33,842 bases of DNA, from assembly GCA_016180645.1 (NCBI GenBank), contig JACPAV010000033.1, positions 62,001 to 95,842 on the forward strand, in the 5' to 3' direction. The notes under the pieces are model-generated. The model saw only the letters and a list, made by a program, of their open reading frames with translations, ran no database searches and was not told the DNA's origin. The stretch is from Nitrospirota bacterium (lineage in GTDB: Bacteria; JACPQY01). This document shows, piece after piece, positions 3,525 through 26,487 of the stretch (position 1 is its first letter; every line of letters starts with the position of its first letter). Made by a program: the position numbers and the translations under genes.

Positions 3525-5003
3525 ATGAAACGGTCCTCCCTCAAACAAACACCCATCCACATCCGCCGGACGGAGATCCGGTTGGCCCCGGACCAAAACC
3601 GGGTAGTCCTGCGGCCTCTGGGGTTCGCCTCCGATGAGGAATACGTCAGGATCATCCGTCGGGCGCAGGCGCTTCCGGAGCAGGATGTCCAGCGCGTTCT
3701 TGATCGGGTCCTGCAGGAGTTTTCCTCCCGCCATCGGTGGCTGATCAAGCGCCTCTTGGCGAGGTTTCACCACCTGGAACATTTCCTGCCCCCGGGAGGC
3801 GACATCTCGGAAGCGCGAAAACTGCTGATCGGCTCCTACTTCATGTTTGAATATTCGGCCGAGTCCGCGGCGCTCTTCAACCCATCCATCCTTCACCATC
3901 CCGACCAATCGGGGCTGCCCAAGGGAAGTCTGCGCTTCCTTCTGAGCCTTCGGTCGACGGGGGAGGGTCACGTATCTTCCATTTCTTTCCGCAGCGGCGT
4001 TATTGACGCGCACAACGGCATTTCCGTGGACCCGGCATCGCGTTTCTTGACCGAGCCCGAGCTCATTGAGAACCCGGCTTATCACAAAGTTCTCTTTGGG
4101 CGGAAGATCGCGGAAATGGGCTTGGCCGGCGAATGGGCGGAACGCGTGATGGGCCGCCTGGGAGACTTTTTCACCCTCAAAGAACTCAAGCATGGCCTCA
4201 AGGAGGTGCTTCAAGAAACGGCCCCCGGCCAAAAAATCGGGGACGACAACACCGCCAAAGGCCTGTGGCTTTTGGCGCAGTCCAACTACGACATTCGGTT
4301 TCCGCCGGACCAGGAGCTCTCCGAAAGGATCATTTTTCCCGTCACTCCCATTCAAAGCAACGGCATCGAGGACGTGCGTCTGACGGCGCATCGAGCCGAA
4401 GGGGGAAACACGGTTTATTACGCCACCTATACCGCCTACGACGGCCGCAACGTGCTTCCCCAGCTCTTTGAAACGGAGGATTTCCTGCACTTCAAGTTCG
4501 CCACGCTCAACGGCCCCGGGGTGCAGAACAAAGGGATGGCCCTCTTCCCGCGCAAGATCAAAGGCCTCTTCGCCATGCTCTCGCGCCAGGACGGCGAGAA
4601 TGTTTTCCTGATGTATTCCGACAACGTGCATTTTTGGAACGAGTCTCAGCTCATCCTCTCACCCGCTCACCCCTGGGAATTCGTGAAGATGGGCAACTGC
4701 GGGTCTCCCATCGAGACGGAGGCGGGCTGGTTGGTGCTGAGCCACGGGGTTGGGCCCATGCGGAAGTACTGTCTCGGCGCTTTCTTGCTGGACCGGAATG
4801 ATCCTTCCAAGGTGATCGGCCGGCTGCGGAAGCCCTTGATGTCCCCCGAAGGGACCGAACGGGAGGGGTACGTTCCCAATGTCCTCTATACCTGCGGAGC
4901 GCTTGTGCGCGGCGATCAGCTTATCCTGCCCTACGGCATGTCGGACCGCGTGACCGGATTCGCCATCATTCCCATGGATGAAATCATGGCCCCCATGGCT
5001 TGA
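3525..5003 (+). CDS. Glycoside hydrolase/phosphorylase family 130 protein with N-terminal extension
   Basis: 492 aa, abutting the GT4 stop (TGA-ATG). Motifs GIEDVR, YYATYTAYDG, NKGMALFPRKI, WEFVKMGNCGSPI and EREGYVPNVLYTCG. Confidence 0.88.
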   Translation: MKRSSLKQTPIHIRRTEIRLAPDQNRVVLRPLGFASDEEYVRIIRRAQALPEQDVQRVLDRVLQEFSSRHRWLIKRLLARFHHLEHFLPPGGDISEARKLLIGSYFMFEYSAESAALFNPSILHHPDQSGLPKGSLRFLLSLRSTGEGHVSSISFRSGVIDAHNGISVDPASRFLTEPELIENPAYHKVLFGRKIAEMGLAGEWAERVMGRLGDFFTLKELKHGLKEVLQETAPGQKIGDDNTAKGLWLLAQSNYDIRFPPDQELSERIIFPVTPIQSNGIEDVRLTAHRAEGGNTVYYATYTAYDGRNVLPQLFETEDFLHFKFATLNGPGVQNKGMALFPRKIKGLFAMLSRQDGENVFLMYSDNVHFWNESQLILSPAHPWEFVKMGNCGSPIETEAGWLVLSHGVGPMRKYCLGAFLLDRNDPSKVIGRLRKPLMSPEGTEREGYVPNVLYTCGALVRGDQLILPYGMSDRVTGFAIIPMDEIMAPMA

Positions 5004-5056
5004 AGGGCAGTCCCGATGACTCATAGGGGATTTCGAGAGAAGCAAGGGCGCCAGGC

Positions 5057-5584
5057 ATGATTCCGGACCCGCTTGAAAGGGAACGGAATACCATCGGGCG
5101 AGCCCATCTCACGGAGGTGAATGGAACATCCATCTCGTGGGGTGAGATGGGAAAGGGCGACTCGCTGATTCTCCTTCACGGCATTTAGGACTCCCATCGA
5201 ACGTGGCGAAGGTGCGCGCCCCTTCTCGCCCGGCATTTCCGAGTCCTGATGCCCGATCTGGCGGGCCACGGCTATTCCGGCAGGCCGGACGCCCCGTACA
5301 CGCTTTCATGGCACGCCCGCATCCTCATCCAGTGGATGCGTAAGCTGAGCATGCCACGGGCGCACGTGGCAGGGCATTCCTACGGCGGGGGCGTGGCCCA
5401 ATGGATGCTTTTGGAGGACCGGAAACGCGTGCGCCGCCTGGCGCTTGTCTGCTCGGGAGGGCTTGGTCGGGAGGTGGCGGTCGGGATGCGCCTCGCCTCG
5501 TTTCCGTTATTCGGTCCTCTTACTCGCTCCGGTGCTGATGAAATTCGGCTCGCGCATGTGCCATGGGGTCAAGTCTTGACTTGA
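5057..5584 (+). pseudogene. Alpha/beta-hydrolase pseudogene (in-frame amber stop, C-terminal truncation)
   Basis: The frame from ATG 5057 reads ...GDSLILLHGI*DSHRTW...PDLAGHGYS...GHSYGG. TAG lies at 5186-5188. The reading frame ends inside the inverted repeat, and no C-terminal acid/His catalytic region is present. Confidence 0.85.
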
Positions 5585-5637
5585 TACTTCTCAGGTTCGC
5601 CGATGAAGCAAGTTGTGCCAAGTCAAGACTTGACCCC
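5565..5637. repeat. 19-bp perfect inverted repeat element (REP/REPIN- or MITE-like)
   Basis: GGGGTCAAGTCTTGACTTG (5565-5583) and CAAGTCAAGACTTGACCCC (5619-5637). Each arm is itself a small hairpin (GTCAA-GTC-TTGAC). Confidence 0.85.
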
Positions 5638-8600
5638 TTGCCCTTGCCCCCGGCGAGAAAGGAAGAAGGCGAGGAGCAAGACGGAGGGGAGGAGGGTGCT
5701 CCAGGGGTCGGTGGGAGAGCCGGGGAGGACGGCGCAGCCGCAGGTCATGCCGGCTTCGGAGGAGTCGGACTTGTACTCGACGGTGAAATGGTACTGGGTG
5801 AATTCCTTATTGTCCGCTTCATCGGTGGCGCGGACGAGGAGGTCATGCGCGCTGCCTTGTTCGAGCCCGCTCAGTTCTACGAGGCCGTCCTGCGGCAGGG
5901 CTTGATACGCGGCCCCGTCGAGGCTCCATTCCGCATTGATGTCGCTCCGTTCGGATACATAGTCTGTGACATGGGCGGTGAGGCGGACGAGGTCTTTCCC
6001 TGGATAGGCGGGGCCGATGACGCGGATGACGGGGGGTTGGGAATCGACTGCATATTTCAGGACGGCCGGTGTGGAGTCGATGTTGCGATCGGTGTCGATT
6101 CCCTGGACTTCCAAGGTGTGCCGACCTTCGATCTGCGGACCGAGGTGGAGGTCGGGATCAGCGGAGAAGATCTGCCAGGGCATGTCGTCGACGCGCCAGG
6201 TGTATTTGGCCGACGTGTCCCGATCGTCTTCATAGAGCACATAGACGACGCCGCCCGCCGGGGAGATGCCGTTGGCCACGGTCTGCTTGGGGTCGAGGTT
6301 GATGAATTCCTGGGCGGGGCCGCTTTTTGAGAGGGCGATGAAGGTTTTCGGCGCGGCGGGGCTGTCGGCCACGGTGGAGCCGGCGCCCATGCGGGCCGGG
6401 GCGAAGAGGGCGAATCCGCCGCCGCTGCTCTCCGGGGAGCAGGTGGTGAGGCAATCGCCCTTGGACAGGGCATCTCCCGAGAACATCGACTCTCCGAGTC
6501 CGGCCGAGCAGACTTTGTCTCCGGCGAAGCAGTCGGTCGTGCAGTGGAAGTCCGTGCGCCCATCCGTGCACGTGCCGTCTTTGGCCTCGCACCCTTCGCA
6601 GGACTTGTTGCCACAACAGGGTGGGGCGCCGCAGTCTGAGCAGCCGCAGTTCGTGGCGGTTCCCGTGCACTCGCCCTTTTCATTGGCGGTGTAGACCTTC
6701 GAGCCGCACTCCGTGTATTTCTCGCCCTGACCCATCTGGCAAATTCCGTCGCCGCATTTGCAGTCTTCGCTGGGTCCGTACCACTTGGCCTCTTCGCCGG
6801 GCGCACAGTACTGGCTGTTGCGCGTGGCGCAGTCGTCAGGGCAGTTCAGCTCCGTTTCGCCGATGTTGAGTTGGCACGTGCCGTCATCGTTGCATACGTC
6901 GGAGGGGATGAGGTCCGTTCCGAGCAGGCCGATGATGTCGAACTGTTTGAAACGGGCGTAGACGGTAAAGTAGTCTTTGGCGCCGTTGCCATCGGCGTCT
7001 GAGCCCTCGGTGCCTTCGTTTTTCGTCATCGGTTCCGGCCCCATGTGGAGGAACTTGAACTTGATGCCGGGGATGGAGAACTTTGTCTTCACGTCCGCGT
7101 AGAGGGACATTTCGAGCATTTCGCCGAGGAGTTCGGCGATGCCGCTCGTGAGGCGTTTGCCGCTGTCCGTCAGCGTCTTCCCGGGCTCCACATCGAGATA
7201 CTGGATGCTGTCGACGTCCAGCTTGGAATCGAAGTAGAGCGAGATGCAGGCGTCATCGTCGTCCGTGAGGTCGTTGTCGTCGAGCCCGAGGCAGGCGACG
7301 CCATCTTTGAAATCGGACTTGGCGCATTTGGCGCAGTCGGCGATTTCGCCGTACTCGTTGTCCGCGCAGCCGTATTCGAATCCGATCGGGCAGCAGGTGG
7401 GGGAGTTGGCGGAGTCGGTGCAATCCTTGCCGCTGACGGTCTTTGAGGGCGTGCAGGCCGGATCGGAGTTGGAGCTGTCGAAATCCGAGTTCGGGCAGAA
7501 GCCTTCGCCGGTGAAGTAATCCACGGAGACTTGGTATGCCATTCGGGTCCGCAGGGACATGAGCCGTTGCTCGGTGCCGTCCAGGTTTTTCAGGATGAAG
7601 TCGACGTCGAAGTTGGGGAGGGAGAATTCGAAATCGGTCCGGCAATCCTGGGGGCAACTGTCTTTCGTTTCGTTCGAGTTGCACACGAAGTCGGGGCAGG
7701 TTCCGGCGGTGGTGGAGGTTTTCCAGCGGGGGTTGCCGATCTTGACATCCGGTGTGCCTCTCGGGATGGTGCGGAGGATGACGGGCTGGCTGGCTCCGCC
7801 TTCGGTCTGGAAATTCTTGAAGGCCGGGAAGAGCGTTTCGAGCGAGCCGAGAGTGAAGGCGAAGGAGGCCGGGTTCGCGATGCTGGTGATATCGAAGCCG
7901 TCGAGGAGGCTCGACGCTTCGGTGGAAGAGGTCGAACCGTCCGTGGATTCGGGCGCGGCCGGCGGGGGGATCTGCATGCAGAAGCTGCCGGAGACGTAGA
8001 GTTGGTAGAAGATCCAGCGGAGGAGTTCCTGCGAGATGCCGAAAGCCATGTGGTAATTGGTGCCGTTGAATTTTCGGTATTCGAATTTCACCGCCGTGGC
8101 CGTCTGGGGGTTGGGCGGGCTGGTCTTATCGATGGACTCGAAGCACTCGGAGCTCTTGAGTTGGGAGAGATCCGTGGTGATCGGCTTCATGCCGAAGTCG
8201 AATGGCAGGAGGAAGCCGTTGTTGTCGATGTCCAAGTGGGGATAGAAGGCCATGCCGACGAGCGAATTGCCGCCGCCCTGGACGCCGTAGTAGCGCGCGG
8301 AGTTGGGGTTGCACTCGGCCGTACACCATTTGGGATCTTCCGCACCGCCGCAGGTGGGATCGCCCGTAGCAGGAATCGTGCCTTGCGGGATGGCCGTGGG
8401 TTGGACCCAACTGGTCATGAGGGCCATGACGTCGATGGGGAGGGAGCCTTCGAGCATGCCTTTGACTTGATCCATGAGGGGGCCCGCCAGTTGACCGATG
8501 AACAGGCCCTTGAAGGCGTTGATGAGTGCGCTCAGGAGGAAAGTGCAAATCTCTTTGATGATGGGGACTCCGCACAGGCCGCCCAATTCCAGCGTGATCT

Positions 8601-9489
8601 TGCCCGCGTCGATGCCGCTGTTATCGAGGCCCTTGGTTGTATCCACCCCCAGGTCGATGCTGAGAATGCTCGGATAGGGAGAGAGGTCGGTGCGCTTCAC
8701 CGGGTCGAGCTTCAGGTACAGGGTGAGGTATTCGATCGTGGCCCTCCCGCGCTCGAAGCCGAACCCGTCTATCTTGAGCTCGGCGATCATATTGTCGATA
8801 CGGATATTGATATTCATCGTGTCGTTTGCCGTGTCAATGGGCAGAGTGGGTGTCATCGAGGAGTAGTCCATGATCTTCCCCATGCAGAATTGCGTGTCGG
8901 ACGGATTGCAGACGCAATTAGCGTCTCCTGTGCTGTTGGCCGGGCAGGTGTGGCCGTTCTGGTCCGGGTAGGTGTCCTTCAGCCAGATCTTGACTCCGAG
9001 CATATCCGCCACGGGGTCCGTGGGCATGCTTGTGTTGATGATCCACTTGATGAGGTCGGATTTCATGAGGTCCAAGATTTGAACCTTGATTTTTTCGAAG
9101 CCCGTGTCCGTATCGGCGCCGGAGGGATCGGCGGTGAGCCTGAACGGGATCGCTTCCGTGTTGAGGAACGGAGCGGGGTTGCAGGTGGCCGGATCGTGTC
9201 CGAACTTATCGGCGCAGGCGCCGCCTTTGGTCGGATGGGGAATCGGCGAGAGCGGGATTTTGGTGTCTTCATCAACGAAGGACTTTCCCGACTTGGGGGG
9301 GAGTGCGGCGCCGCAGCCTCCGCAGCCGGCGCCCTCGGAGCAGGCGGCGAGCGCGAGCATGGCGAGGATGAAGGCGCCTTGGGCGATTCGTTTGGGGGTG
9401 AGAAAGCGCGGGCTAAAGCCCGCGGCTACCGAGGTCTCCACGAACGTCCTGATCGTCCTTTCTTCGCCTGTTGCTTTGTCACTTGTCAC
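5623..9489 (-). CDS. Large surface lipoprotein: BPI/LBP(TULIP)-like region, Cys-rich repeats, two Ig-like domains, MYXO-CTERM tail
   Basis: 1288 aa from GTG 9489 (GAGG upstream; start could be later). Lipobox LAAC, then GCGGCG. HMAFGISQELLRWIFYQLYVSG segment. CGDGxC/E..CPxDC repeats. Ig-like YTWRVD..W..EGRHTLEVQGID. Tail GCAVLPG...LLLAFFLSRRG. Confidence 0.8.
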   Translation of the reverse strand: MTSDKATGEERTIRTFVETSVAAGFSPRFLTPKRIAQGAFILAMLALAACSEGAGCGGCGAALPPKSGKSFVDEDTKIPLSPIPHPTKGGACADKFGHDPATCNPAPFLNTEAIPFRLTADPSGADTDTGFEKIKVQILDLMKSDLIKWIINTSMPTDPVADMLGVKIWLKDTYPDQNGHTCPANSTGDANCVCNPSDTQFCMGKIMDYSSMTPTLPIDTANDTMNINIRIDNMIAELKIDGFGFERGRATIEYLTLYLKLDPVKRTDLSPYPSILSIDLGVDTTKGLDNSGIDAGKITLELGGLCGVPIIKEICTFLLSALINAFKGLFIGQLAGPLMDQVKGMLEGSLPIDVMALMTSWVQPTAIPQGTIPATGDPTCGGAEDPKWCTAECNPNSARYYGVQGGGNSLVGMAFYPHLDIDNNGFLLPFDFGMKPITTDLSQLKSSECFESIDKTSPPNPQTATAVKFEYRKFNGTNYHMAFGISQELLRWIFYQLYVSGSFCMQIPPPAAPESTDGSTSSTEASSLLDGFDITSIANPASFAFTLGSLETLFPAFKNFQTEGGASQPVILRTIPRGTPDVKIGNPRWKTSTTAGTCPDFVCNSNETKDSCPQDCRTDFEFSLPNFDVDFILKNLDGTEQRLMSLRTRMAYQVSVDYFTGEGFCPNSDFDSSNSDPACTPSKTVSGKDCTDSANSPTCCPIGFEYGCADNEYGEIADCAKCAKSDFKDGVACLGLDDNDLTDDDDACISLYFDSKLDVDSIQYLDVEPGKTLTDSGKRLTSGIAELLGEMLEMSLYADVKTKFSIPGIKFKFLHMGPEPMTKNEGTEGSDADGNGAKDYFTVYARFKQFDIIGLLGTDLIPSDVCNDDGTCQLNIGETELNCPDDCATRNSQYCAPGEEAKWYGPSEDCKCGDGICQMGQGEKYTECGSKVYTANEKGECTGTATNCGCSDCGAPPCCGNKSCEGCEAKDGTCTDGRTDFHCTTDCFAGDKVCSAGLGESMFSGDALSKGDCLTTCSPESSGGGFALFAPARMGAGSTVADSPAAPKTFIALSKSGPAQEFINLDPKQTVANGISPAGGVVYVLYEDDRDTSAKYTWRVDDMPWQIFSADPDLHLGPQIEGRHTLEVQGIDTDRNIDSTPAVLKYAVDSQPPVIRVIGPAYPGKDLVRLTAHVTDYVSERSDINAEWSLDGAAYQALPQDGLVELSGLEQGSAHDLLVRATDEADNKEFTQYHFTVEYKSDSSEAGMTCGCAVLPGSPTDPWSTLLPSVLLLAFFLSRRGQGQGVKS
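9407..9429 (-). repeat. GTAG-type REP-like palindrome inside the 5' end of the CDS
   Basis: Minus strand GTAGC-CGCGGGC-TTTA-GCCCGCG: GTAG tetranucleotide followed by a 7-bp perfect stem. Confidence 0.65.
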
Positions 9490-9496
9490 ATGTCAC
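9476..9496 (-). repeat. Heptamer tandem repeat (GTGACAW)x3 spanning the start codon
   Basis: Plus strand TTGTCAC TTGTCAC ATGTCAC. Confidence 0.75.
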
Positions 9497-9497
9497 C

Positions 9498-11126
9498 TCA
9501 GAAGACGTCGGTTACGAAGGGGTTGAGGAGCCGGAGGAGGAGGCGCCGTTGGAGGCTTGTATCCGGCAACTGATCGAAACCTTCGTAGGCGATTCCGATG
9601 ACCCAGCCTTCGAGGGCGGATTCGGAGTATGTGAACGAGGCCATGGAGGACCACAGGCCGACGATTTTGGGGGTATCCAGCGACTGGATGGCCCACGAGA
9701 ACGCCTCGGCGGCTCCCGGGTCGGCGACTTGGACGGCCAGTTTGAGGTCTCCGGTGGCGCCATCCCGGTAGGAGATGAGCGGACGCTGGTTGGGTCCCAT
9801 GGCGATGGTGCTCTCGAGACCGGTTCCCGGATCGATGCCGTCTTCCACGATCTGGCCGACCCATTCTTCGAGGAGAACTTCGCCTTCCGACTGGCTGAAT
9901 TCGGTGAGGTTTTCTTCGCTGACCAGCACGAGATTCGCGGGCCGGCCATCTCCAATGGGAGCCACTTCCTCCCTGACTTGCAATGTTCCGCGGTCGAAGT
10001 TCTTGATGCGGCGGAAGCGCGGGTACCACCGTTTCAGGTTCGCATCGTAGACGATGTATTTCAGATCGCCGGCGAGCGCATCGGTGTAGCTGATGTGGAG
10101 GCGGCCGCGGTGATCCACGGTCACGGAGGCCCATCGGCCGACGTCGCTTGGCGTGCCGTCGCCCGGACTTTGGGGGCCGGCTTGGAGATCGTCAAGGGTC
10201 GTGATTTCCCATTCGCCGCCCACCACGGGTTTTTGGGCGAGTTTGAGATCGCCGTTGGGCTGACCGCCGCCCTCGCGGTTGGGATCGTAGTAGACGATGT
10301 ACACGGTGTCCGGCTGGTGTTCGGCATCGGCTGCCGAGATGGCGATGGAGGTTTTGCTCGGATCATCGCCGCGGGCGAGTTGGTTGGGATCGAGGAGGAC
10401 TCCGGCGACAGGCGGTTTGTCGCCATCCACCGCGGGATCCCATTCGCCGCCTTCCTCGGGCCGTTGCCGGTCCCACCGGAGGTACTTTACCGCCCCTTTC
10501 CGGGTGGGGTCGAACGAGACATAGGCGGCATGGATGCTGCCCGATTCGTCCAGCACGGCGGAGATCCACTGGCCGACGTTTCGTGATTCGGAGTCGAGGG
10601 TCACGATCTTGTGTTCCCAGACGCCGTCTTTCCGCTTGGTGGAGCCCCAGGCATATTTGATCTGCTTGTTGTCGTCGTCGTAGTACACGATGTGGGGTCG
10701 GCCGGTTGGGTCCACGTTGAGGGCGTTCCATTTTCCCATGCCATCGCCCTCTTTGTGGGTTCCCTTGTCTACGGGCTGGCCCTTGACGGTCCGTTTCTGG
10801 CCGGTGGGAAGTCCGAACTGGTCCACCTCGTCGAATTCGACGGTGGGGATCCACTTGCCCGCGCCTTCGGCCGTCTTGGCGAAGTAGATGTATTTGAGCC
10901 CCTTCTCCTTGAGATCGTAGTAGGTGAGATGGGGCATGCCGCGCACGTCGAACTTGAGGGAGGCGCCGATGCCGGCGTCCGAGGAGTCATCGACGACGAT
11001 GGAAGGGACGGGCAGCGGGCGGACGGAGTCGTGGCTGCCGGCGCGGCCGCACGCGGCGATACACGCCGCCGAGGCGGCGAGCATCGCCGCATTTGAGATT
11101 TGAGATTTGAAATTTGAAATTTTCAT
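9498..11126 (-). CDS. Beta-propeller-like lipoprotein, paralog 2 (542 aa)
   Basis: The likely start is ATG 11126, overlapping the upstream TGA (TGATG): MKISNFKSQISNAAMLAASAACIAACGR, lipobox IAAC. Recurrent blade motif G.w.s...D..G.PHI.YYD....lKY. The 944-aa ORF call is over-extended at its N-terminus. Confidence 0.8.
   Translation of the reverse strand: MKISNFKSQISNAAMLAASAACIAACGRAGSHDSVRPLPVPSIVVDDSSDAGIGASLKFDVRGMPHLTYYDLKEKGLKYIYFAKTAEGAGKWIPTVEFDEVDQFGLPTGQKRTVKGQPVDKGTHKEGDGMGKWNALNVDPTGRPHIVYYDDDNKQIKYAWGSTKRKDGVWEHKIVTLDSESRNVGQWISAVLDESGSIHAAYVSFDPTRKGAVKYLRWDRQRPEEGGEWDPAVDGDKPPVAGVLLDPNQLARGDDPSKTSIAISAADAEHQPDTVYIVYYDPNREGGGQPNGDLKLAQKPVVGGEWEITTLDDLQAGPQSPGDGTPSDVGRWASVTVDHRGRLHISYTDALAGDLKYIVYDANLKRWYPRFRRIKNFDRGTLQVREEVAPIGDGRPANLVLVSEENLTEFSQSEGEVLLEEWVGQIVEDGIDPGTGLESTIAMGPNQRPLISYRDGATGDLKLAVQVADPGAAEAFSWAIQSLDTPKIVGLWSSMASFTYSESALEGWVIGIAYEGFDQLPDTSLQRRLLLRLLNPFVTDVF
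11091..11118 (-). repeat. Heptamer tandem repeat x4 in the signal-peptide n-region
   Basis: Plus strand ATTTGAG ATTTGAG ATTTGAA ATTTGAA, encoding about SNFKSQISN. Confidence 0.85.
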
Positions 11127-12727
11127 CAGGTGCCCAGCTTCTCGAAGTATCGGAAGAGCAGGGTATGTTTCCGACTGCCCGTTTCGAGGATCTCGTAGCC
11201 TTGGTAGGCAATTCCCACTTTGAAATCTTCGGGCGTTTTTCCAGGGATCGTGCGGAGCGAGGACCAGATGCCCACGGTTTTCACATTGTCCAGTGGAACG
11301 GTGGCCCAGGCGTGTCCGGTGGGCGAGGGTGTGAGTGAATCCTGGAAGGCGATCTTGAGATCGCCCGTGGTGCCATCGCGGTAGGACAGGATCGCGCGGT
11401 TGAAGGGATCCAGCGTCATGGCTGCGCCCACCCCCGTGCCTGCTCCGGAGCCGTTGTCCACGATCTCGCCGGCCCATTCTTCGAGAACGGTCGTGCCTGT
11501 GCCGGACACATCGCTCATCGGCAGTTCGCTGACTACGCGGATGTCCGGTGTGCCGTCTTCCTTCGGCGGGAGTTCCACCTGGAGCTGGTTCTTCCCGACG
11601 TCGAAGTTCTTTACCCGCCTGTAGCGCGGGTACCACAGGCTGGTGGAGGGGTTGTACAAGATCTGTTTGAGGTCTTTGTTCGTCTCGTCGGCATACGCGA
11701 TGTGGAGGATGCCTTTCGAGTCGATCTCGGCGGCGGTCCACGTGCCGACGTTGTCTTGGTGCGTATCTCCGCCCACGGTCTTGTCCGTGCTGCCCGGTAC
11801 TTTGCTCGGCGGCAGATCGTCCAGGATTTGTACGGCAAACGGCGATCCGGAGGGCGCCGAGATGTTTCGACGGGCGAGTCGGAGGTCGCCGTCCGAGGAT
11901 GAATAGTAGACGACAAAGACATCCTGTTTGGAGAGGGCGATGGCGGTGCGCGAACCCTCGGCGGTGGCGAGCGGTTTCCCTACGGGCTCCGTGCCGGGAA
12001 AGTTTCCGAGGTCGACCAGATCGATGGTCTCGATTCGGGGCCGGTCTTTCTGCGATTCCTCGTCCCACGAGCGGTTCCATCGGAGGTACTTCACTTTTTT
12101 GAACTGGCCGTCCGTGTAGGCCACATGGATGTTCTGGGGGGTTGCGTCGTCCATCGCGGCCGTGAGCCATCTGCCGACGATTGCGCCTTCGGAGTCCAGG
12201 AAGACTTTCTTGAAGACCCAGGAGCCGTCGCCCGCTTGGCCGATGGCCCAGGCGTACTTGAGCTGGCGGGTGTCCCCGTCGTAGTAGACGATGTGGGGCC
12301 GATCTTCTCGGTCCAGCACGAGCCAGTTCCAATAGCCCACGCCTTTCCCGGAGCGCGGACCCATGTCCACGATTTGCCCGCGGATGATCGTCAGATCGTT
12401 CTCCAGTTTTCCGCAGTCCTTGTAGTTCGGCTCGGCCGTTTTGACTTGAGGCTGCCAGTTGAACCGGCCCGGCTCCACTTGGACGCCTTCGATGTATTTC
12501 AGGGCCTTGCAGCCGGCGTCGTAGTAGCTGATGTGGGCGTTTTTCTTGGAGTCGAATTTGAGGGAGGGGGCGATGCCTGCGTCCGAGGTGTTGTCGATCA
12601 CGGAGCCCGGTGTGAAGGGAATGCGGAAACTGTCCTCGCCGCCGGAGCGGCCGCAGGCGGCAGCGAAGGCTGCCGCCGTGATGAGTGATGAGTAATGTGT
12701 GAAGCGACGGATCATGCCAAGAGCCAT
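11126..12727 (-). CDS. Beta-propeller-like lipoprotein, paralog 1 (533 aa)
   Basis: GGAGGG SD. Lipobox FAAAC-GR. Repeated AHISYYD/PHIVYYD/IHVAYTD/LHIAYAD blades. Colinear with the downstream paralog (WYPRYRRVKNFD vs WYPRFRRIKNFD; SYRDGTTGDLK vs SYRDGATGDLK). Confidence 0.82.
   Translation of the reverse strand: MALGMIRRFTHYSSLITAAAFAAACGRSGGEDSFRIPFTPGSVIDNTSDAGIAPSLKFDSKKNAHISYYDAGCKALKYIEGVQVEPGRFNWQPQVKTAEPNYKDCGKLENDLTIIRGQIVDMGPRSGKGVGYWNWLVLDREDRPHIVYYDGDTRQLKYAWAIGQAGDGSWVFKKVFLDSEGAIVGRWLTAAMDDATPQNIHVAYTDGQFKKVKYLRWNRSWDEESQKDRPRIETIDLVDLGNFPGTEPVGKPLATAEGSRTAIALSKQDVFVVYYSSSDGDLRLARRNISAPSGSPFAVQILDDLPPSKVPGSTDKTVGGDTHQDNVGTWTAAEIDSKGILHIAYADETNKDLKQILYNPSTSLWYPRYRRVKNFDVGKNQLQVELPPKEDGTPDIRVVSELPMSDVSGTGTTVLEEWAGEIVDNGSGAGTGVGAAMTLDPFNRAILSYRDGTTGDLKIAFQDSLTPSPTGHAWATVPLDNVKTVGIWSSLRTIPGKTPEDFKVGIAYQGYEILETGSRKHTLLFRYFEKLGT
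12678..12698 (-). repeat. Heptamer tandem repeat x3 in the signal peptide
   Basis: Plus strand GTGATGA GTGATGA GTAATGT, encoding THYSSLIT. Confidence 0.65.
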
Positions 12728-12739
12728 CAGAGTGCCCTC

Positions 12740-12812
12740 CCGCTCATGCTTCGACGGCGCTCAGCACGAGCGGAAAAAAGCCGTTCGCCCTTGGCCTGTC
12801 GAAGGGTGAACG
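12740..12812. repeat. Inverted doublet of CTTCGAC...CTCAG-type hairpin repeats (REPIN-like) within the operon
   Basis: CCGCTCATGCTTCGACGGCGCTCAGCACGAGCGG and CGTTCGCCCTTGGCCTGTCGAAGGGTGAACG. Each folds into a hairpin, and the two are related in opposite orientation. Confidence 0.7.
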
Positions 12813-12832
12813 CGGCGTTGGCCCTCCAAAGC

Positions 12833-15800
12833 CTACCAACCAAGTTTCCTCCGAGAGAGCCAGAGGAGGGGTGCGATCAGGAGAAGGACGGCAGAGCCCA
12901 TGGGCGCTGATGATCCGAAGGGGATGGACGCGCAGGCGCCTCCGCCCCCTGGCGCGTCTTCCTGCACGCGGAACGGGTGGGAGATTTCGCTGACGTTTTC
13001 CGCGTCGTCCTTGGCGCGCAGCTTCAGCTCATGGTCGCCGAGGGCGAGATCACGGAACTTGAGATCGCGCCGATCGGAGAACTCGCTCCAGGCATTCCGA
13101 TCCAGACTGTAGGAGACCAGAATCTTCTCTTCCGGCGTCTGGACATCGTTGACGGATACGGTGAACTTGGGACTTTCCCGCACGATCGTATTCTGGGTGC
13201 CCAGGAGGCGGATGTCCGGTCCCGCGGAGTCGACGCGGAAGTAGAGTGTGGCGGGCGAGGCATCGACGATGTTGTCCGCCGAGCGCGACTTGATTTCCAG
13301 GCGGTGGAGACCTTCGTACAGGCCGGGGAGCATGGCGTAGCGGTCGCCCGTGTAGATGTGCCACGGGCCGAAATCGAGCTTCCACGAGAAATCCTTGGCG
13401 CCGTTCTCACCCGCGAAATCGAGGACGGAGTCGAACGTGGTGATTCCCGCTTTCTTGGTTTCCAAGGCGTTCAGGACCAGCCGATCGCCGAAACGCCCGT
13501 CGGTGAGTTGGACGAAGGTGTCCGGCTCGAGGGCCGCGTAGTCGGGAATCGGTTGTTGGCGCGCTGGAGCGGCGCTGGGGCAGGTCGGATTCGGGAGTGT
13601 GGCGCAGACGGTGTCGCCGGAGGGCGGCTTCGCGCAGTACTTGGCGCGAACCGTGCTGCACGTGCCGGCCTGCGGGCAGAGGCTGCAGAGCTGGGCGAGA
13701 ATCGGCTTGCACATGCCGTCCATGGCCTTCGCGGGATCGGCTTCGCAGAGAAAGCCCGTCACGAGATTCCAGAGGTCCTTCGGTCCGATGATGTCCGGGT
13801 CCGTGTCGGCGTCGTTCTCGCTGTCCAGCAGGTTGAGGCCGATGCCGAGGTAGTCGCCTTTGTCCTGGTCGTCCGCCACGGTGTTGCCCCGATCGTCCGT
13901 GATGGGGAAGGGATCTTTATCATCGCCCATCGGATCGATGATGAGGTCGAACATCGGGAGCGTCATGCCCAGGAGTTCGTTGGGGTTCACTTCGATCTCT
14001 CCCACGAGACCCGCCACGACGCCGATGAGGAGGCCGAAGAGATCGGAGACAAACTGGTGGGGCGGTTTTTTGGCTTTGTCGAACACTTCCGTGTTGAAGG
14101 TGAACGCCTTGATGTCCGGGGCGTTCTCGATGCCGATGCCGAGGACCATCGTCCAGCTCGGGTTTCCCTGACTGTCCTTGATGGGTTGCCCCTGATCGTT
14201 CTTCACTTTGCGGGTTACGTCGATGCCGACGCCGAGATCCATTCCGAGGTCGACTTCGGCGGCCGTCTGGTAATTCTTGGCGCGGTCCACGTCTACTTGG
14301 ATTCCGAATCCCAGATGGGGGATGCGGGCGAGGATGTCCGATTGGATTTCTTTCCCGTTGGCGCTGAGGATCTTGCCGCCGATCAACAGCGTCGGAGTGT
14401 CTTCAAGCTGAACGTAGCGGCCGTCTTTCGGATCGACGAGTTTTGGAGCGATGCTGAACTTCACTTCGGCGTTGGGGAAGGCCTTGGACAGGTCGCCCCA
14501 GAGGAACCCGATCTTGTCCGTGTTGAAGAAGTCCGCCGGGTTGATGCCCCCCAGGCTGCTGGAGTCGCTGCCGAGGGATCCCATCAGGGTCGAAACGAGA
14601 GCCGCATCGATCCCGATGCAGGCCACGCCGGAGGTGAGCGCGTTGTACATGACGGCGCTGAGGACGTCTTGGTGGAGACCGATGCCGAGCATCTGGTTGG
14701 AGAAGATGAGCGGTGTGATCTCGGTGATGATGGGAGCGGCGGAGGGCGGCCGCAGGACGCAGTTGAACTCCTTCGGATAGTCGAGCCCGATGCCCAGACC
14801 GCCCTTGAGCTCGACGCCGCCCTTCTCGGTTTTGGGATCGCAGAATCCGGAGTTCTTCCCGTTGCAATCCGCGAGGAAATCGAAGTTGAAGCCGAGGTTG
14901 AGCGTGATGCACCCTTTGGTGAGAGGGTGTTCGATGCCGCCGGAGGCCGAGCAGGTGGAGGCGGTGGACGTGGTGGACGAGCTGCCGCCGAGGCCGGGAA
15001 TGAGGCTGCTGCCGCTGCCGCCCGTGAGGCCGGCCAGGAGGCTGGAGGCATCCATGATCGGCGTGGGCCCGAAGTACTTGGCCACGGCCTTGTCGAACTC
15101 GTTGGTGAGTTCCAGCTTGAGGTTCAGCTCGAGGAAGGGCAGGAGGCTGGCGAACTTCTTCGAGAGGGCATCGGGGTTGCTCGGAAGCTCCAGTTTAATG
15201 TTGAAGCCGGTCCCCATTTTCACGTACGGGAGTTCCAAGGCGAGGCTGGTGCCGGGGTTGAGCGGCCGGAGCGGTTCGCCGTTTGCGTCGGCGGATACGG
15301 GATCTCCGCCGAGGGGACGGAGGGCAAGCGAGAGAGTGAGATTGGGGATGTTGCCCTTGGCGTTAACCGTGACGAATTTGGCCGGATCGGCGACGTATTG
15401 GCTTGGATCGGTCGGATCGGGTTTGGGGCCTCCGCCTTCCTGGACGGCGCAATCCGCCTCACCGGTGCGCGTGGGGGCGCGGAACTTGAAGTCGGCCGAC
15501 ATGGGGGCGAGGTCCACCACCACGGCGAGGGCCTTCTTGTCCATGTCCGGCTTGAAGCCGAGTTCGCGCACGGTGTAGTCGAGGGACTTGCCGTCGTTGT
15601 CGAGATCTTCGATGTAGAGCGCAAGGCACATGTCCGGGATGAAGGGATCGAGGCCGAATTTGAATTCGAAGAGCGCATCCCCGCTGCCGCCGAGAAGATC
15701 CGTCACCAGGCCGGCGAGGATGTTCTTGGTCATGTTCAGTTCGGCGTCCTTGTTGGCGGGGTTGGAGTAGTTGCAGCGGTCTTCCTTGCCGAGGAGGCAG

Positions 15801-16051
15801 TTCAGGGTTCGGTTGAGGTAATCGAGGAGGGTGTTGTCGATGCGCAGGTCGAAGGAGTTGCAGAGGTCGCACTTGCCGTCCGCGTCCACGTCGAAGGAGG
15901 GGATTTTGACGGTGAGCGGTTTGGCCGGCGCGGTGCTTGAGCTTGAACTCGATCCGAGGCAGGAGCTGTTGCAACTGCTCCCTCCGGACGAACACGCGAA
16001 AACGGCGAGAAATGCGGCGAGAAGAACGCCTAGTCTGAACTTGTGTCTCAT
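12833..16051 (-). CDS. Large surface lipoprotein: BPI/LBP(TULIP)-like region, two Ig-like domains, MYXO-CTERM-like tail (1072 aa)
   Basis: Start ATG 16051 with GGAGG SD: MRHKFRLGVLLAAFLAVFAC. Segment QMLGIGLHQDVLSAVMYNALTSG...GDLSKAFPNAEVKFSI...TPTLLIG. Ig-like FSWKLD..W..EGLHRLEIKSR. Tail GGGGACAS...VLLLIAPLLWLSRRK. Confidence 0.8.
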   Translation of the reverse strand: MRHKFRLGVLLAAFLAVFACSSGGSSCNSSCLGSSSSSSTAPAKPLTVKIPSFDVDADGKCDLCNSFDLRIDNTLLDYLNRTLNCLLGKEDRCNYSNPANKDAELNMTKNILAGLVTDLLGGSGDALFEFKFGLDPFIPDMCLALYIEDLDNDGKSLDYTVRELGFKPDMDKKALAVVVDLAPMSADFKFRAPTRTGEADCAVQEGGGPKPDPTDPSQYVADPAKFVTVNAKGNIPNLTLSLALRPLGGDPVSADANGEPLRPLNPGTSLALELPYVKMGTGFNIKLELPSNPDALSKKFASLLPFLELNLKLELTNEFDKAVAKYFGPTPIMDASSLLAGLTGGSGSSLIPGLGGSSSTTSTASTCSASGGIEHPLTKGCITLNLGFNFDFLADCNGKNSGFCDPKTEKGGVELKGGLGIGLDYPKEFNCVLRPPSAAPIITEITPLIFSNQMLGIGLHQDVLSAVMYNALTSGVACIGIDAALVSTLMGSLGSDSSSLGGINPADFFNTDKIGFLWGDLSKAFPNAEVKFSIAPKLVDPKDGRYVQLEDTPTLLIGGKILSANGKEIQSDILARIPHLGFGIQVDVDRAKNYQTAAEVDLGMDLGVGIDVTRKVKNDQGQPIKDSQGNPSWTMVLGIGIENAPDIKAFTFNTEVFDKAKKPPHQFVSDLFGLLIGVVAGLVGEIEVNPNELLGMTLPMFDLIIDPMGDDKDPFPITDDRGNTVADDQDKGDYLGIGLNLLDSENDADTDPDIIGPKDLWNLVTGFLCEADPAKAMDGMCKPILAQLCSLCPQAGTCSTVRAKYCAKPPSGDTVCATLPNPTCPSAAPARQQPIPDYAALEPDTFVQLTDGRFGDRLVLNALETKKAGITTFDSVLDFAGENGAKDFSWKLDFGPWHIYTGDRYAMLPGLYEGLHRLEIKSRSADNIVDASPATLYFRVDSAGPDIRLLGTQNTIVRESPKFTVSVNDVQTPEEKILVSYSLDRNAWSEFSDRRDLKFRDLALGDHELKLRAKDDAENVSEISHPFRVQEDAPGGGGACASIPFGSSAPMGSAVLLLIAPLLWLSRRKLGW

Positions 16052-16070
16052 TGATCCCTCCATCTGGGCA

Positions 16071-16099
16071 AACGTATCAGTATCATGATTACCTGTCAA
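16071..16099 (-). promoter_or_regulatory. Putative sigma70 promoter of the surface-protein operon
   Basis: TTGACA (16099-16094), 17 bp, TACGTT (16076-16071), with a TGn extended -10. Confidence 0.55.
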
Positions 16100-16112
16100 C
16101 CGATATTAACCC

Positions 16113-16129
16113 TGCAAGGTGATGGCCAA
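16113..16129 (-). promoter_or_regulatory. Putative sigma54 (-24/-12) promoter
   Basis: TTGGCCATCACCTTGCA: GG-N10-GC spacing with TTGGC and TTGCA matching the RpoN consensus. Confidence 0.65.
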
Positions 16130-16159
16130 AGCCTTGGGAAACAGGTTGCAATCCATTGA

Positions 16160-16172
16160 AATCAATAGATTG
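16160..16172 (+). promoter_or_regulatory. Putative IHF binding site
   Basis: AATCAA-TAGA-TTG matches WATCAAN4TTR exactly, in an AT-rich tract about 30 bp upstream of the -24 box. Confidence 0.55.
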
Positions 16173-16270
16173 TTCAAGTATCGATGCGGGCTGTCGGAAA
16201 TTGGGGACAAAAGGGACCGGCATCGGGTAATTAGTTCTTTTCCCAACGTGTCGTCGCGTTGGGATTGAAT

Positions 16271-16399
16271 AGCTGTCAGCGGTCAGCTTTCAGCGGTCAG
16301 CTTCCGGAAGGATTGGTCACTGGGTACGGACAGGACGTTTAGGAATGGGCCTTGATTCTGATGCGTTTCTGGTGAGCTGACAGCTGAATGCTGATCGCT
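16271..16399. repeat. Two inverted arrays of NNTCAGC heptamers enclosing ~75 bp
   Basis: AGC-TGTCAGC-GGTCAGC-TTTCAGC-GGTCAGC (16271-16301) and GCTGACA-GCTGAAT-GCTGATC-GCT (16376-16399). Confidence 0.8.
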
Positions 16400-16412
16400 C
16401 AGTGCTGGAAGC

Positions 16413-16916
16413 CTATTTTGGGGACATCTGCTCACGGACTTCTTGGAGGAGGTCCTCGGTGATCAGGGTGACTCCTCGCTGCCGGGCGACTCGTTCGATT
16501 TCCTGCTGGACCATAGGGCGTATGAAGAGAGGGATTCTCTCAAGGCGGAGTTCGGCATCGGTAGTCCACGCGAGGGAAGGGCGAGGCTCCACCGAGGGCT
16601 TTTTTGCCTCGTCGGCTGCAAGCATTTGCGGAAAAGGACACCCTGCGCCTGTGCTCGGTGCGACGTTCGACGTTCGACGTTCGACACTCGTTTCGAGGGA
16701 CTGGCGGGTCATTTCGAGAGGCTGGGCCGGGGCGTCGCGCCCCCCAACCTTGACACCCAGTGCGTTTACCATCTGGGTTTCACCGGGATTCGTCACCATG
16801 GAGAATCGGTGGCCGCACTGGGGGCAGGAGAATGTTATACCGAGCGATCCATCGGAGATCTTCTCCTGCTCCGCATAGGTCATGAACGTTTCACAGGATC
16901 GACAAACGAATTTCAC
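16413..16916 (-). CDS. Zinc-ribbon/CxxC protein with C-terminal PCP_red-like domain
   Basis: 167 aa. GTG start with GGAGG SD. CRSC...CPQC, GCPF, and C-terminal WTTDAELRLERIPLFIRPMVQQEIERVARQRGVTLIT resembling the BchB C-terminal (PCP_red) domain. Confidence 0.8.
   Translation of the reverse strand: MKFVCRSCETFMTYAEQEKISDGSLGITFSCPQCGHRFSMVTNPGETQMVNALGVKVGGRDAPAQPLEMTRQSLETSVERRTSNVAPSTGAGCPFPQMLAADEAKKPSVEPRPSLAWTTDAELRLERIPLFIRPMVQQEIERVARQRGVTLITEDLLQEVREQMSPK
16661..16685. repeat. Heptamer repeat (CGACGTT)x3.5 inside the CDS linker
   Basis: CGACGTT CGACGTT CGACGTT CGAC. Three units are 21 nt, so the frame is kept (VERRTSNV). Confidence 0.85.
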
Positions 16917-16959
16917 GGCGGTCCTCCCTTCGTCAGCCTTAGTGCGTCTAACAGAATGC

Positions 16960-17076
16960 GTAGGGGAGTGTCTTCAGACCCTCCCAACAAGAGGGAGCAA
17001 CCAAGAGGGAGCACCTGTAGGTGCTCCCCTACGAGGAGGCAAGGACAAGAGGGAGCATCTGAAGATGCTCCCCTAC
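16960..17076. repeat. Cluster of three GTAG-type REP palindromes (BIME-like)
   Basis: GTAGGGGAGTGTCTTCAGACCCTCCC (+, 16960-16985); GGGAGCACCTGTAGGTGCTCCCCTAC (17007-17032) and GGGAGCATCTGAAGATGCTCCCCTAC (17051-17076) in the opposite orientation. CAAGAGGGAGCA occurs three times. Confidence 0.85.
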
Positions 17077-17100
17077 GAATCGGCAATCTGTTAGCGGCTC

Positions 17101-18042
17101 TTATGATGCTTGGGACCCTTCCAGAAGTCCCGCAAGTTTGGCGGCGATCTCACTGAACGGCGCGGGAATCTTCCCATGCTCCGGCCCGGCGCCCACGGCC
17201 GGATCGAAGGGGACGGCGGCGAGAAGGGGGATTCCCAGCTCACCGGCGATGTTTTCCAGGCGCTCTGCGCTCAGGTTCCCGCCCTCGAAGATATTCTCGA
17301 CGTGGCCGCAGTGGGAGCAGGTTTTTCCCGCCATGTTGACTACTAGTCCAAGCGGCCGGATGCCGGAATCCCGCGCGTAGGCCACGGATCGGCGCACCAC
17401 GTCCAATGCGATCGCGGAGGGGGTGGTCACCATGACCGCGCCGTCCAGATCCGGAATGAAACTCATGAGGGCGGGCGGCTTGTCCGCGGCGGCGCCCGGG
17501 GGCAGATCGGCCAGCCACCAATCCAGTTCGCCCCATAGGATGTCCGCCAGCAGTTCCCGGAGGACCGTGTATTCCAGGGTGCCGAGCCAGACGGGACTCA
17601 GCTCCATGGGTCCGTTCCACCGGGTAGGCGAGCCATGCTTCAGGAGAAAATCGAGCGAGGCGATTTTCATGCCCAGAGGTCCCTCGATCGGTGTCGCGCC
17701 ATCGGCCCGAAAGGCTAGGGACCGGCCATTCAAGCCGAGCAGCTTGGGGAGGCACGGGCCGTTGAAATCGACGTCCAGCACTCCTACCCGATTTCCCAGG
17801 GCGGCCAGGGCCGTGGCGAGGTGCGCGGTGACGGTGCTCTTCCCGACGCCGCCTTTGCCGCTCATGACGAGGATTTTTCGTTTGATTCCGGCCATTCGAG
17901 CATGCACCGCGGAGGTCTGTTCGTGAATTTGGGAGGCGATTTTCGCATCGTCCGCAAATCTAATATTTTTGAGAATGGTTTTCAGGTCGCCGCTCACGAG
18001 GGGGATGCTAGAAGATTCCCCCTTGCGGGTCAATGGATCCAT
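17101..18042 (-). CDS. Mrp/NBP35 (ApbC) family Fe-S cluster carrier ATPase
   Basis: SGKGGVGKST deviant Walker A, LDVDFNGP, DLPPG, MVTTP, VNMAGKTCSHC. Start trimmed to ATG 18042 to avoid overlap with the divergent gene. Confidence 0.9.
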   Translation of the reverse strand: MDPLTRKGESSSIPLVSGDLKTILKNIRFADDAKIASQIHEQTSAVHARMAGIKRKILVMSGKGGVGKSTVTAHLATALAALGNRVGVLDVDFNGPCLPKLLGLNGRSLAFRADGATPIEGPLGMKIASLDFLLKHGSPTRWNGPMELSPVWLGTLEYTVLRELLADILWGELDWWLADLPPGAAADKPPALMSFIPDLDGAVMVTTPSAIALDVVRRSVAYARDSGIRPLGLVVNMAGKTCSHCGHVENIFEGGNLSAERLENIAGELGIPLLAAVPFDPAVGAGPEHGKIPAPFSEIAAKLAGLLEGSQAS

Positions 18043-18121
18043 CCCACGGCCTGGGAGGGCCGTTTGACATCGGAAGGGTGAGCGGGGAAGATGCCTGGAA
18101 CGGTCGCGAAACGAATCCAAG

Positions 18122-18544
18122 ATGAGAGCCATCTGTTTATTGATTGTCGCGGGCGTGCTCGCGGCTGCGGGCGCGCAGGACCCTTTGAAGGTGTCCTTGG
18201 AAAAGCTTGTGCGCTCGCCGGAAGAGTTCGTGTCGATCCCTCTGGTCGAGGTGGAGGGCGTTCTCAAGAACGCGGGCCAATCCTATTTCAAGGGGGCGCG
18301 TTTTGAGATACGCGATGGAGGGTCGGCCCTCGAAGTGGCGCCGTGGCTTCCCCTCGAAGTGGCGCCGCCGAGGCCGGGTTCGGATACTCCAAGACGAACG
18401 GTGATGTCGGACTTCCTCAGCAAGAGGGTGCGTCTCCAGGGCCGGATTGTGCCGGCGGGCTCGGAAGGGGCGAAGGACAAGAAGGAAACGCATCGATTTT
18501 CAGTCGAGCGCGCCGAAGTGATTTCCCCGGAGAGGCTGAAGTGA
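18122..18544 (+). CDS. Small exported protein, probable OB-fold
   Basis: 140 aa. Signal peptide MRAICLLIVAGVLAAAGA. Pattern LVRSPEEF...VEVEGVL...FEIRDGG...KRVRLQGRI. Confidence 0.65.
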   Translation: MRAICLLIVAGVLAAAGAQDPLKVSLEKLVRSPEEFVSIPLVEVEGVLKNAGQSYFKGARFEIRDGGSALEVAPWLPLEVAPPRPGSDTPRRTVMSDFLSKRVRLQGRIVPAGSEGAKDKKETHRFSVERAEVISPERLK

Positions 18545-22033: not shown

Positions 22034-22041
22034 GTCGAACG

Positions 22042-25731: not shown

Positions 25732-25762
25732 GGAGTGCTCGACACCGTTGATATCCTTCATC

Positions 25763-26371: not shown

Positions 26372-26487
26372 TTCGACGCGCAGTGTAGCGCATTACGGGT
26401 TGCTCTTGTGGGTCGGGAATCACCCTTGTAGAATTGCCTCTCGAAAGGATACGGTTGGCGACCTACCGGAGGAGCACCACACGCAAA

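Follow-up and report, generated by a model that had tools for sequence, protein, structure and literature searches.

We describe an operon of four genes, here named A, B, B' and A', in a 33,842-nucleotide stretch of a Nitrospirota genome (contig JACPAV010000033.1, positions 62,001 to 95,842; this whole stretch is the window, and its numbering is used below). The large protein A is predicted to be built around two tandem tubular lipid-binding (TULIP) barrels resembling those of BPI, LBP and CETP, an assignment that rests on structure models and of which we are fairly confident. With moderate confidence, we propose that A and its diverged paralog A' are envelope-tethered double TULIPs with the propeller proteins B and B' as partners, and that they handle hydrophobic cargo at the envelope. 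All four genes lie on the minus strand, within 5623-16051:

12833-16051, minus strand: gene A, 1072 residues from an ATG; a TTG at 16099 opens the longest frame
11126-12727, minus strand: gene B, 533 residues, a predicted lipoprotein of repeated propeller blades
9498-11126, minus strand: gene B', 542 residues from an ATG, the paralog of B
5623-9489, minus strand: gene A', 1288 residues from a GTG, the diverged paralog of A, with 55 cysteines
16052-16412, minus strand: untranslated region upstream of A; the next gene upstream is 16413-16916

The four genes form a tight operon of two paralog pairs with a kept gene order. A and B are separated by 105 nt, the stop codon of B and the start of B' share a TGATG junction with a 1-nt overlap, and 8 nt lie between the stop of B' and the GTG of A'. 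The overlap of the B' ATG with the B stop suggests translational coupling of B' to B. A preliminary description of this DNA, made from the sequence alone, had reported four co-directional, closely spaced genes, and the gaps of 105, -1 and 8 nt bear this out; its coordinates and the lengths of both large proteins (1072 and 1288 residues) are exact, and all of the peptide strings it quoted for A and A' are found in their translations. The interval 16052-16412 probably contains the promoter and the 5' leader. A consensus scan found no sigma-70-like site there, promoter and terminator scans of 4900-17200 gave nothing exceeding shuffled expectation, and a scan of the window at Rfam gathering level gave 0 matches.

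The order of parts in A is a lipobox, the double-TULIP region, a Cys-rich linker, two immunoglobulin (Ig)-like domains and a Cys-containing tail of the sorting type. Its modelled domains, with their predicted local distance difference test (pLDDT) scores, are:

15059-15760, minus strand (A residues ~98-331): N-terminal TULIP-like barrel, pLDDT ~50-71
13787-14707, minus strand (A residues ~449-755): C-terminal TULIP-like barrel, pLDDT 63-86, carrying the motifs that the preliminary description had aligned by eye with BPI
12953-13537, minus strand (A residues ~839-1033): tandem Ig/FN3-like domains of the Y_Y_Y type, pLDDT ~73-88
12836-12943, minus strand (A residues ~1037-1072): Gly-rich stretch, Cys, hydrophobic helix and basic end, MYXO-CTERM-like

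Two models of A were obtained. Model 1 covers the full-length protein and was built from 8 sequences (pLDDT 49.3); model 2 covers residues 96-760 and was built from a 17-row alignment to which A'-type proteins and further paralogs had been added (pLDDT 60.9, predicted template modelling score 0.47). In a Foldseek search with model 1, the sole matches outside the Ig domains were BPI (E 1.6e-7), LBP and CETP. With model 2, 7 chains matched at E<=1e-3, and every one is a TULIP protein: BPI (3.0e-11 and 3.8e-11), LBP (1.2e-9 and 1.5e-9), CETP (7.1e-9) and OrfX1-OrfX3 (two chains). The BPI match spans 675 columns, and the next ranks are held by P47, OrfX2, Takeout, JHBP, Mmm1, Der p 7 and SPLUNC1. 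Aligned end to end with BPI by VIA, model 2 reached Z 11.4 over 380 of 456 residues with a root-mean-square deviation (rmsd) of 17.7, residues 7-648 of the model pairing with 16-455 of the chain. A scan of 48,161 chains that was independent of Foldseek returned Z>=8 for just BPI (9.3) and CETP (9.2); chains of YceB, P47 and OrfX are among the weaker structural matches of the A model. Identity in the alignments to BPI, LBP and CETP is ~10%. The fold of A that the preliminary description had suggested is thus what the models predict, BPI, LBP and CETP being the best matches of both outside the Ig domains, and the Foldseek comparison of the large-protein core that it had proposed ranks these three at the top for residues 96-760. 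At a pLDDT of 60.9 the fold class is supported and the geometry is not. An ESM-feature search with residues 440-760 also led to PF02886 clusters, at 0.89 and 0.85, which we take as a lead only.

Each barrel also finds TULIP partners of its own. The N-terminal barrel (model 2 residues 3-236) aligned with Der p 7 (Z 7.4, rmsd 5.0, 160 residues aligned) and with BPIFA1 (Z 7.2, rmsd 4.5, 158 aligned); overall, the N-terminal half of A matched single-barrel TULIPs at Z 6-7.4 and rmsd 4-5 Å over ~150-160 residues, and the barrel aligns with the N-terminal half of BPI as well. The C-terminal barrel is the best-conserved part of the A family. Residues 381-747 of model 1 aligned with the C-terminal barrel of CETP (chain residues 223-467) at Z 9.1 and rmsd 6.3 over 227 residues, and alignments to P47, Takeout and YceB were also found. 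The motifs of the preliminary description lie at the start of this second barrel, where a strand followed by a helix is modelled.

A' stands farther apart and is joined to A through profiles. By BLASTP, A and A' match significantly solely in their C-terminal 256 residues (27% identity, E 1e-19); the N-terminal regions, which include the stretch compared in the preliminary description, are not significantly similar (E 0.93). The profiles of these N-terminal regions are collinear, with an hhalign probability of 95.5% and E 1.4e-8 over 595 columns, and in this alignment the two motifs, one from each large protein, superimpose. The C-terminal parts compare at E 1.8e-38. A' contains 55 cysteines against 24 in A, the surplus lying mostly in inserts. 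B and B' share 38% identity across 519 residues (E 3e-99). The two paralog pairs named earlier therefore stand, one of them as a deeply diverged pair. A double-TULIP fold of A' may be proposed by carrying over that of A through the profile alignment alone. The corresponding parts of A' are:

6832-9153, minus strand (A' residues ~113-886): collinear at profile level with the part of A that holds both TULIP barrels; Cys-rich inserts break it up
5641-6402, minus strand (A' residues ~1030-1283): Ig-like pair and Cys-containing C-terminal tail, matching A by BLASTP at E 1e-19

The description of B and B' as propeller lipoproteins, also made earlier, fits their sequences. B' matched BNR_4 (PF15892) at E 4.8e-8 with 33.1 bits, over the cut-off of 27.3, and B, which alone had no Pfam match at E<=1, is its 38% paralog. 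Repeated blades are apparent in both, as a pattern search found the motif G-x-W...D...PHI-x-Y-Y-D...LKYA in five copies in B and in four in B'. The atlas leads for the two proteins were BNR_4 and SBBP. After the signal, B-type proteins carry an invariant C-G-R. A profile of the B family gave 0 matches in PDB. The BNR_4 name raised the idea that B and B' are enzymes of the sialidase type, but no Asp-box motif was seen in either on reading the sequences, with no formal motif test. A complex prediction of A residues 440-760 with mature B scored 0.00, which weighs neither for nor against contact.

Both ends of A and A' carry possible anchoring features. All four proteins of the operon have lipobox-like Cys motifs, as the preliminary description had claimed, the lipobox being here a pattern match after a hydrophobic stretch: VFAC in A (Cys20, with Phe at position -2 of the motif), AAAC in B (Cys25), IAAC in B' (Cys26) and LAAC in A' (Cys50 counted from the GTG start). 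At the other end, the Ig pair is the part common to A and A' by BLAST. The second Ig domain of A aligned with the Y_Y_Y domain of BT4663 (Z 10.3, rmsd 2.2, 91 residues), and the pair gave tandem FN3 matches at Z 8-10. Cys1040, in the tail that follows, is kept without exception in the 8 aligned members of the A family and is succeeded by a helix and an end rich in R/K. A pattern scan of the genome for such tails gave 27 matches, about 10 of which are by eye of the Gly-rich, Cys, helix and basic form, including A, A' and the A-type protein of a second locus described below. The genome encodes three CPBP-family proteases (PF02517) and three secretins. CPBP-family enzymes have been proposed to process such tails (Haft preprint), and a further report describes this processing as shown, with Myxococcota tails directing proteins to the surface (mBio 2025, PMC11980579). 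Surface display of A and A' is plausible given the shape of the tails together with the CPBP proteases and secretins of the genome. Two genes of the window belong to this subject:

25763-26371, minus strand: CPBP/Rce1-like intramembrane protease (PF02517, 53.5 bits), one of the genome's three, which lies ~10 kb away from the operon and might process the Cys tails; the overlapping frame 25758-26423 gave no Pfam or NCBIfam match
18343-20415, plus strand: M6 (immune inhibitor A-like) metalloprotease with a C-terminal Cys-helix-basic tail resembling those of A and A' (PVV-CTERM, 18.3 bits, under the cut-off of 27)

The A family is rare. An exhaustive phmmer search with the core of A against 1.84 billion representatives recovered 7 proteins at E<=1e-3, and a word-index search gave one relative of A'. 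The GTDB phylum of the source genome comprises two species genomes. Among sequencing runs that contain the DNA, the four listed are DNA runs of a single groundwater study, two of which may be its source, and none is of RNA. When the family profile was used in a word-index search, 6 proteins were returned, the true members being the query and its orthologue; the other 4 matches span 11-15% of the query and were taken as Ig-type domains only. Likewise, 58 of the 60 loci found by a related-locus search of genome contigs, with a pattern in the Ig domain, share that domain only. A first metagenome scan for relatives found none, and a second, with P0005 as the query, found an Ig-domain relative only. 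P0007 (1,428 residues) is a distant A relative (phmmer E 2.1e-6), and its nearest relative with known context, L023, has B-type neighbours. The Logan contigs that encode P0003 (1023 residues) and P0004 (456 residues) each measure 4,973 bases and may be one and the same. P0004 consists of the N-terminal barrel with a sorting tail of its own, and P0003 begins at the second barrel; the protein may be split naturally, or the gene may carry a frameshift.

Hidden Markov model (HMM) searches of the source genome counted 2 A-type, 2 A'-type and 3 full-length B-type proteins, all within two loci, ordered A-B-B'-A' in the window and A-B-A' on contig C3. Two further proteins have B-like repeats only. The genes of the second locus (L017, contig C3:149000-168000) are:

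10586-14488, minus strand: A-type gene, 1300 residues
9095-10534, minus strand: B-type gene, 479 residues
5744-9073, minus strand: A'-type gene, 1109 residues

The A'-type protein of this locus ends just past a Cys (…GCETLP) and lacks the hydrophobic helix and the basic end that the other members have. A and B of the window are 29% and 27% identical to their second-locus copies, so the gene order has outlasted deep divergence. Both loci are also present in a sister genome (G001) of the same GTDB family, and a metagenome-assembled genome, seemingly unrelated, contains a third kind of locus (L023), in which two B-type lipoprotein genes come after the A-type gene, with a gene for an unrelated PKD/LVIVD protein next in line. 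Across these three genomes, of which two share a family, the A-type gene is followed by a B-type gene at all 5 A-type loci for which flanks are available, and 4 of these 5 end in an A'-type gene. Conserved linkage of the two protein families, which the preliminary description had claimed, is borne out by these loci. They amount to about three separate observations, namely, the two anciently duplicated loci and L023, because genomes of the same family are not independent.

A number of observations weigh against the proposal that A and A' are anchored double TULIPs with propeller partners. At the level of sequence, neither A nor A' matched a Pfam family at E<=1 or gave anything meaningful in NCBIfam, and PF02886 (LBP_BPI_CETP_C) and PF14356 (DUF4403) each had 0 matches at E<=10 across the whole genome. 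A profile of the A family against PDB sequences met BPI only at E 0.53, which is not significant, and a second A-family profile did not recover it; the E 0.53 match falls in the very stretch that had been aligned by eye, and the matches of these profiles were otherwise of Ig type, to the insulin receptor only. In addition, phmmer of the large proteins against PDB sequences found no match. PF02886 itself, when bacterial BPI-like seed sequences were sought with it, matched 0 of 5 genomes and 0 of 401 Bacteroidota genomes, in a search without any match anywhere. The models have low to middling pLDDT (49 and 61), with the N-terminal barrel mostly at 50-71, and whole-protein superpositions have rmsd values of 15-20 Å; therefore, the geometry between the barrels and the long inserts are not reliably modelled. 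As for anchoring, three distant members of the A family (P0005, P0007 and P0008) have no N-terminal Cys, and the N-terminal lipobox is thus lineage specific. The tails of A and A' reach no curated sorting-signal model at its cut-off: A has no MYXO-CTERM match among the NCBIfam sorting models, and A' scored 15 bits (E 0.024) with MYXO-CTERM TIGR03901, under the cut-off of 20.

The linkage has its own difficulties, beginning with its narrow base of three genomes, two of which belong to one family. The sister genome has extra A'-type genes off the operons, on C42 (L103:5959-9156) and C65 (L102:6038-9241), one of them without a B-type match in the 16 kb retrieved and the other with a B-repeat gene 3.5 kb upstream. 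B-like propellers occur in 57 of the 401 Myxococcota genomes searched. The preliminary description had guessed that homologues exist in myxobacteria, and for the A sequence family this did not hold: at 12 Myxococcota loci, the fetched flanks of the B-like genes contained 0 A-type or A'-type HMM matches, and none of the 33 open reading frames adjoining Myxococcota B-like genes matched the LBP_BPI_CETP Pfam families. In 5 of the 12 loci (L107, L110, L111, L114 and L115) the neighbour is instead a gene of the metallo-beta-lactamase fold, so that the propeller with a metallo-beta-lactamase-fold gene is a different conserved pairing of this propeller type. From the Myxococcota contexts without A-type genes it follows that the propeller is generally not a dedicated TULIP partner. 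The metallo-beta-lactamase-fold gene stands before or after the propeller gene and is twice fused to helix-hairpin-helix motifs.

With these points taken into account, we propose the following. A and A' would be tethered to the envelope and belong to a rare bacterial family, as yet without a name, each having a BPI/LBP/CETP-like double-barrel core. The barrels may enclose lipid acyl chains, by analogy with what the TULIP shape does elsewhere, and the Ig-like pair, the Cys-rich spacer and the tail could hold them at or on the outer membrane. B and B', encoded by the same transcript, would be partner subunits that serve as scaffold, receptor or adapter, as TipB does for TipA. Such a module, at the outer membrane or the cell surface, could pick up, hold or hand over hydrophobic cargo, possibly phospholipid, lipopolysaccharide (LPS) or lipid A, or lipoprotein acyl chains, belonging to the cell itself or to another cell. 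We infer the contact between A/A' and B/B', their localisation, the binding of lipid and the identity of the cargo.

Other explanations can account for part of the evidence. A and A' could be periplasm-facing lipoproteins that move or buffer the cell's own lipids, LPS and lipoproteins, with B and B' as outer-membrane partners and none of the four exposed to other cells. We consider this housekeeping role rather unlikely. It would agree with the lipobox-like signals in 4 of 4 proteins, with the prediction that the TULIPs of DUF4403 and YceB are lipoproteins of the outer membrane that look into the intermembrane space (Levine 2019, PMC6791001) and with the window having no predation- or contact-related gene. 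However, the lipobox is missing from the three distant members and the anchoring feature of the whole family is the C-terminal Cys tail alone, found in 8 of 8; tails of that form are described as sending Myxococcota proteins to the cell surface (PMC11980579; Haft preprint), and tandem Ig-like domains with Cys-rich spacers are typical of exposed stalks. Alternatively, the core could be an attack or defence protein that, in the manner of BPI, attaches to LPS or to the outer membrane of foreign Gram-negative cells and either permeabilises these cells or strips lipid from them, in predation, competition or scavenging, with the propellers as target receptors. This comes closest to the preliminary description, which had inferred capture of LPS or lipid from other cells. 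BPI and LBP are indeed the best structural matches, TipA is reported as a double TULIP secreted into prey that binds and destabilises the membrane (bioRxiv 10.1101/2025.09.09.675085), and the M6 metalloprotease, a secreted protein whose tail is of this kind too, is encoded 2.2 kb upstream, on the other strand. Yet CETP scores as well as BPI, and a common fold is no proof of a common cargo; no toxin, immunity or contact-dependent genes are linked to the operon, and the GTDB phylum of the host is sampled by two species genomes only. This role therefore seems to us decidedly unlikely.

A bolder version of cooperation, in which A, B, B' and A' make up one surface machine, is improbable in our estimate. 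Here, the TULIP paralogs would meet head to head in a four-barrel conduit, in the manner of the TipA dimer or of Mmm1-Mdm12, held and gated by the propellers, and lipid or LPS would be moved between the outer membrane of this cell and a membrane of another. Were it true, a device for exchanging or harvesting lipid, new in its composition, would exist in a phylum without a cultured member. Very unlikely, finally, is that the TULIP likeness is an artefact of weak models, such that A and A' are adhesin- or matrix-type proteins with another alpha+beta fold in their N-terminal regions and the propellers are unrelated co-expressed lipoproteins or glycan binders. The mean pLDDT of merely 49 and 61 would allow this, as would Z scores of 9-11, which are near the range that the structure-alignment tool calls common; helix-grip folds (Aha1, START and PYR/PYL) match the N-terminal half at Z 5-6, and no TULIP family is matched significantly by sequence. 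Against an artefact, two models built on different alignments, searched by three methods, rank BPI, LBP and CETP first with both barrels covered, the lower Foldseek ranks are other TULIP families and not random folds, and the independent language-model search names PF02886 too. Double TULIPs tethered to the envelope and acting with propeller partners thus remain the explanation that we favour.

The genes around the operon include those for a glycosyltransferase, a GH130 protein, an Mrp-type ATPase, a transaldolase and a SurA-like chaperone. No functional tie of the operon to either flank is apparent. A tie to the downstream GH130 and glycosyltransferase genes was considered and rejected, since these are convergent and on the opposite strand. 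Upstream, the PCP_red and ATPase genes form a pair that appears unrelated to the operon. An alpha/beta-hydrolase gene, lipid related by its resemblances, lies on the opposite strand, with the transaldolase gene between it and the operon. The features concerned are:

16413-16916, minus strand: PCP_red-domain gene, upstream of A and grouped with the Mrp/ParA-type ATPase gene
17101-18267, minus strand: Mrp/ParA-type (Mrp/NUBPL-type) P-loop ATPase gene, with the PCP_red gene directly downstream
17073-17050: terminator-like hairpin between the Mrp/NUBPL-type ATPase and PCP_red genes
21922-22872, plus strand: alpha/beta-hydrolase gene, its product resembling class 2 lipases, palmitoyl thioesterase and LCAT

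TULIP proteins had for a long time been regarded as mainly eukaryotic. Bacterial TULIP proteins are only now being characterised, and the A/A' locus adds a family that is invisible to Pfam, in which two diverged paralogs, both predicted double TULIPs, bracket one or two propeller lipoproteins in an order kept through a deep duplication and in a second lineage. If the parts cooperate, partner-assisted lipid handling by TULIPs would extend past TipA/TipB, and the locus would provide a handle on the management or acquisition of envelope lipids in an uncultured groundwater lineage. If they do not, the result is still a fold annotation for about ten hypothetical proteins.

The preliminary description had stated that no characterised system like this is known. 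This is out of date, given the TipA/TipB preprint and the DUF4403 paper on bacterial BPI-like proteins. The former presents TipA and TipB of Bdellovibrio bacteriovorus (Bd2538/Bd2539) as a double TULIP and its operon-encoded adapter, both solved, and proposes adapter-assisted lipid loading and higher-order TULIP chains; TipA is said there to be secreted into prey, to homodimerise and to act on the membrane as mentioned above (bioRxiv 10.1101/2025.09.09.675085). The latter predicts DUF4403 (PF14356) to be a full-length bacterial BPI homologue and an outer-membrane lipoprotein and lists YceB, P47/OrfX, DUF2140 and DUF2993 as other bacterial TULIPs (Levine 2019, PMC6791001). No description of a TULIP-propeller pairing was found in the literature searched, supplements excluded.

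The closest parallel is with TipA/TipB, since, as the preprint presents them, a double TULIP is encoded beside a non-TULIP partner in one operon, which is here A-B-B'-A'. TipB, though, is described as a small C2-like beta-sandwich whose loops insert into the TULIP, whereas B and B' are propeller lipoproteins of ~535 residues; and in contrast to TipA as described there, A and A' are diverged paralogs of 1072 and 1288 residues that carry Ig-like domains and Cys-rich spacers along with a lipobox and a sorting-type tail. TipA is set against A and A' here by description, there being no TipA chain among the structural matches. BPI, LBP and CETP (PF01273 and PF02886; PDB 1BP1/1EWF, 4M4D and 2OBD) are the best structural matches of the modelled A over both barrels but differ from it in that A has no Pfam match and has long inserts, extra domains and membrane anchors. 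With DUF4403 and the other bacterial TULIPs, the likeness lies in being bacterial lipoproteins with one or two TULIP barrels; DUF4403, in the account of that paper, is a stand-alone domain of ~460 residues without Ig domains, sorting tail or linked propellers, and A has no PF14356 match. The apparent novelty is twofold: a sequence family that no curated model covers, and the arrangement of A, propeller and A'.

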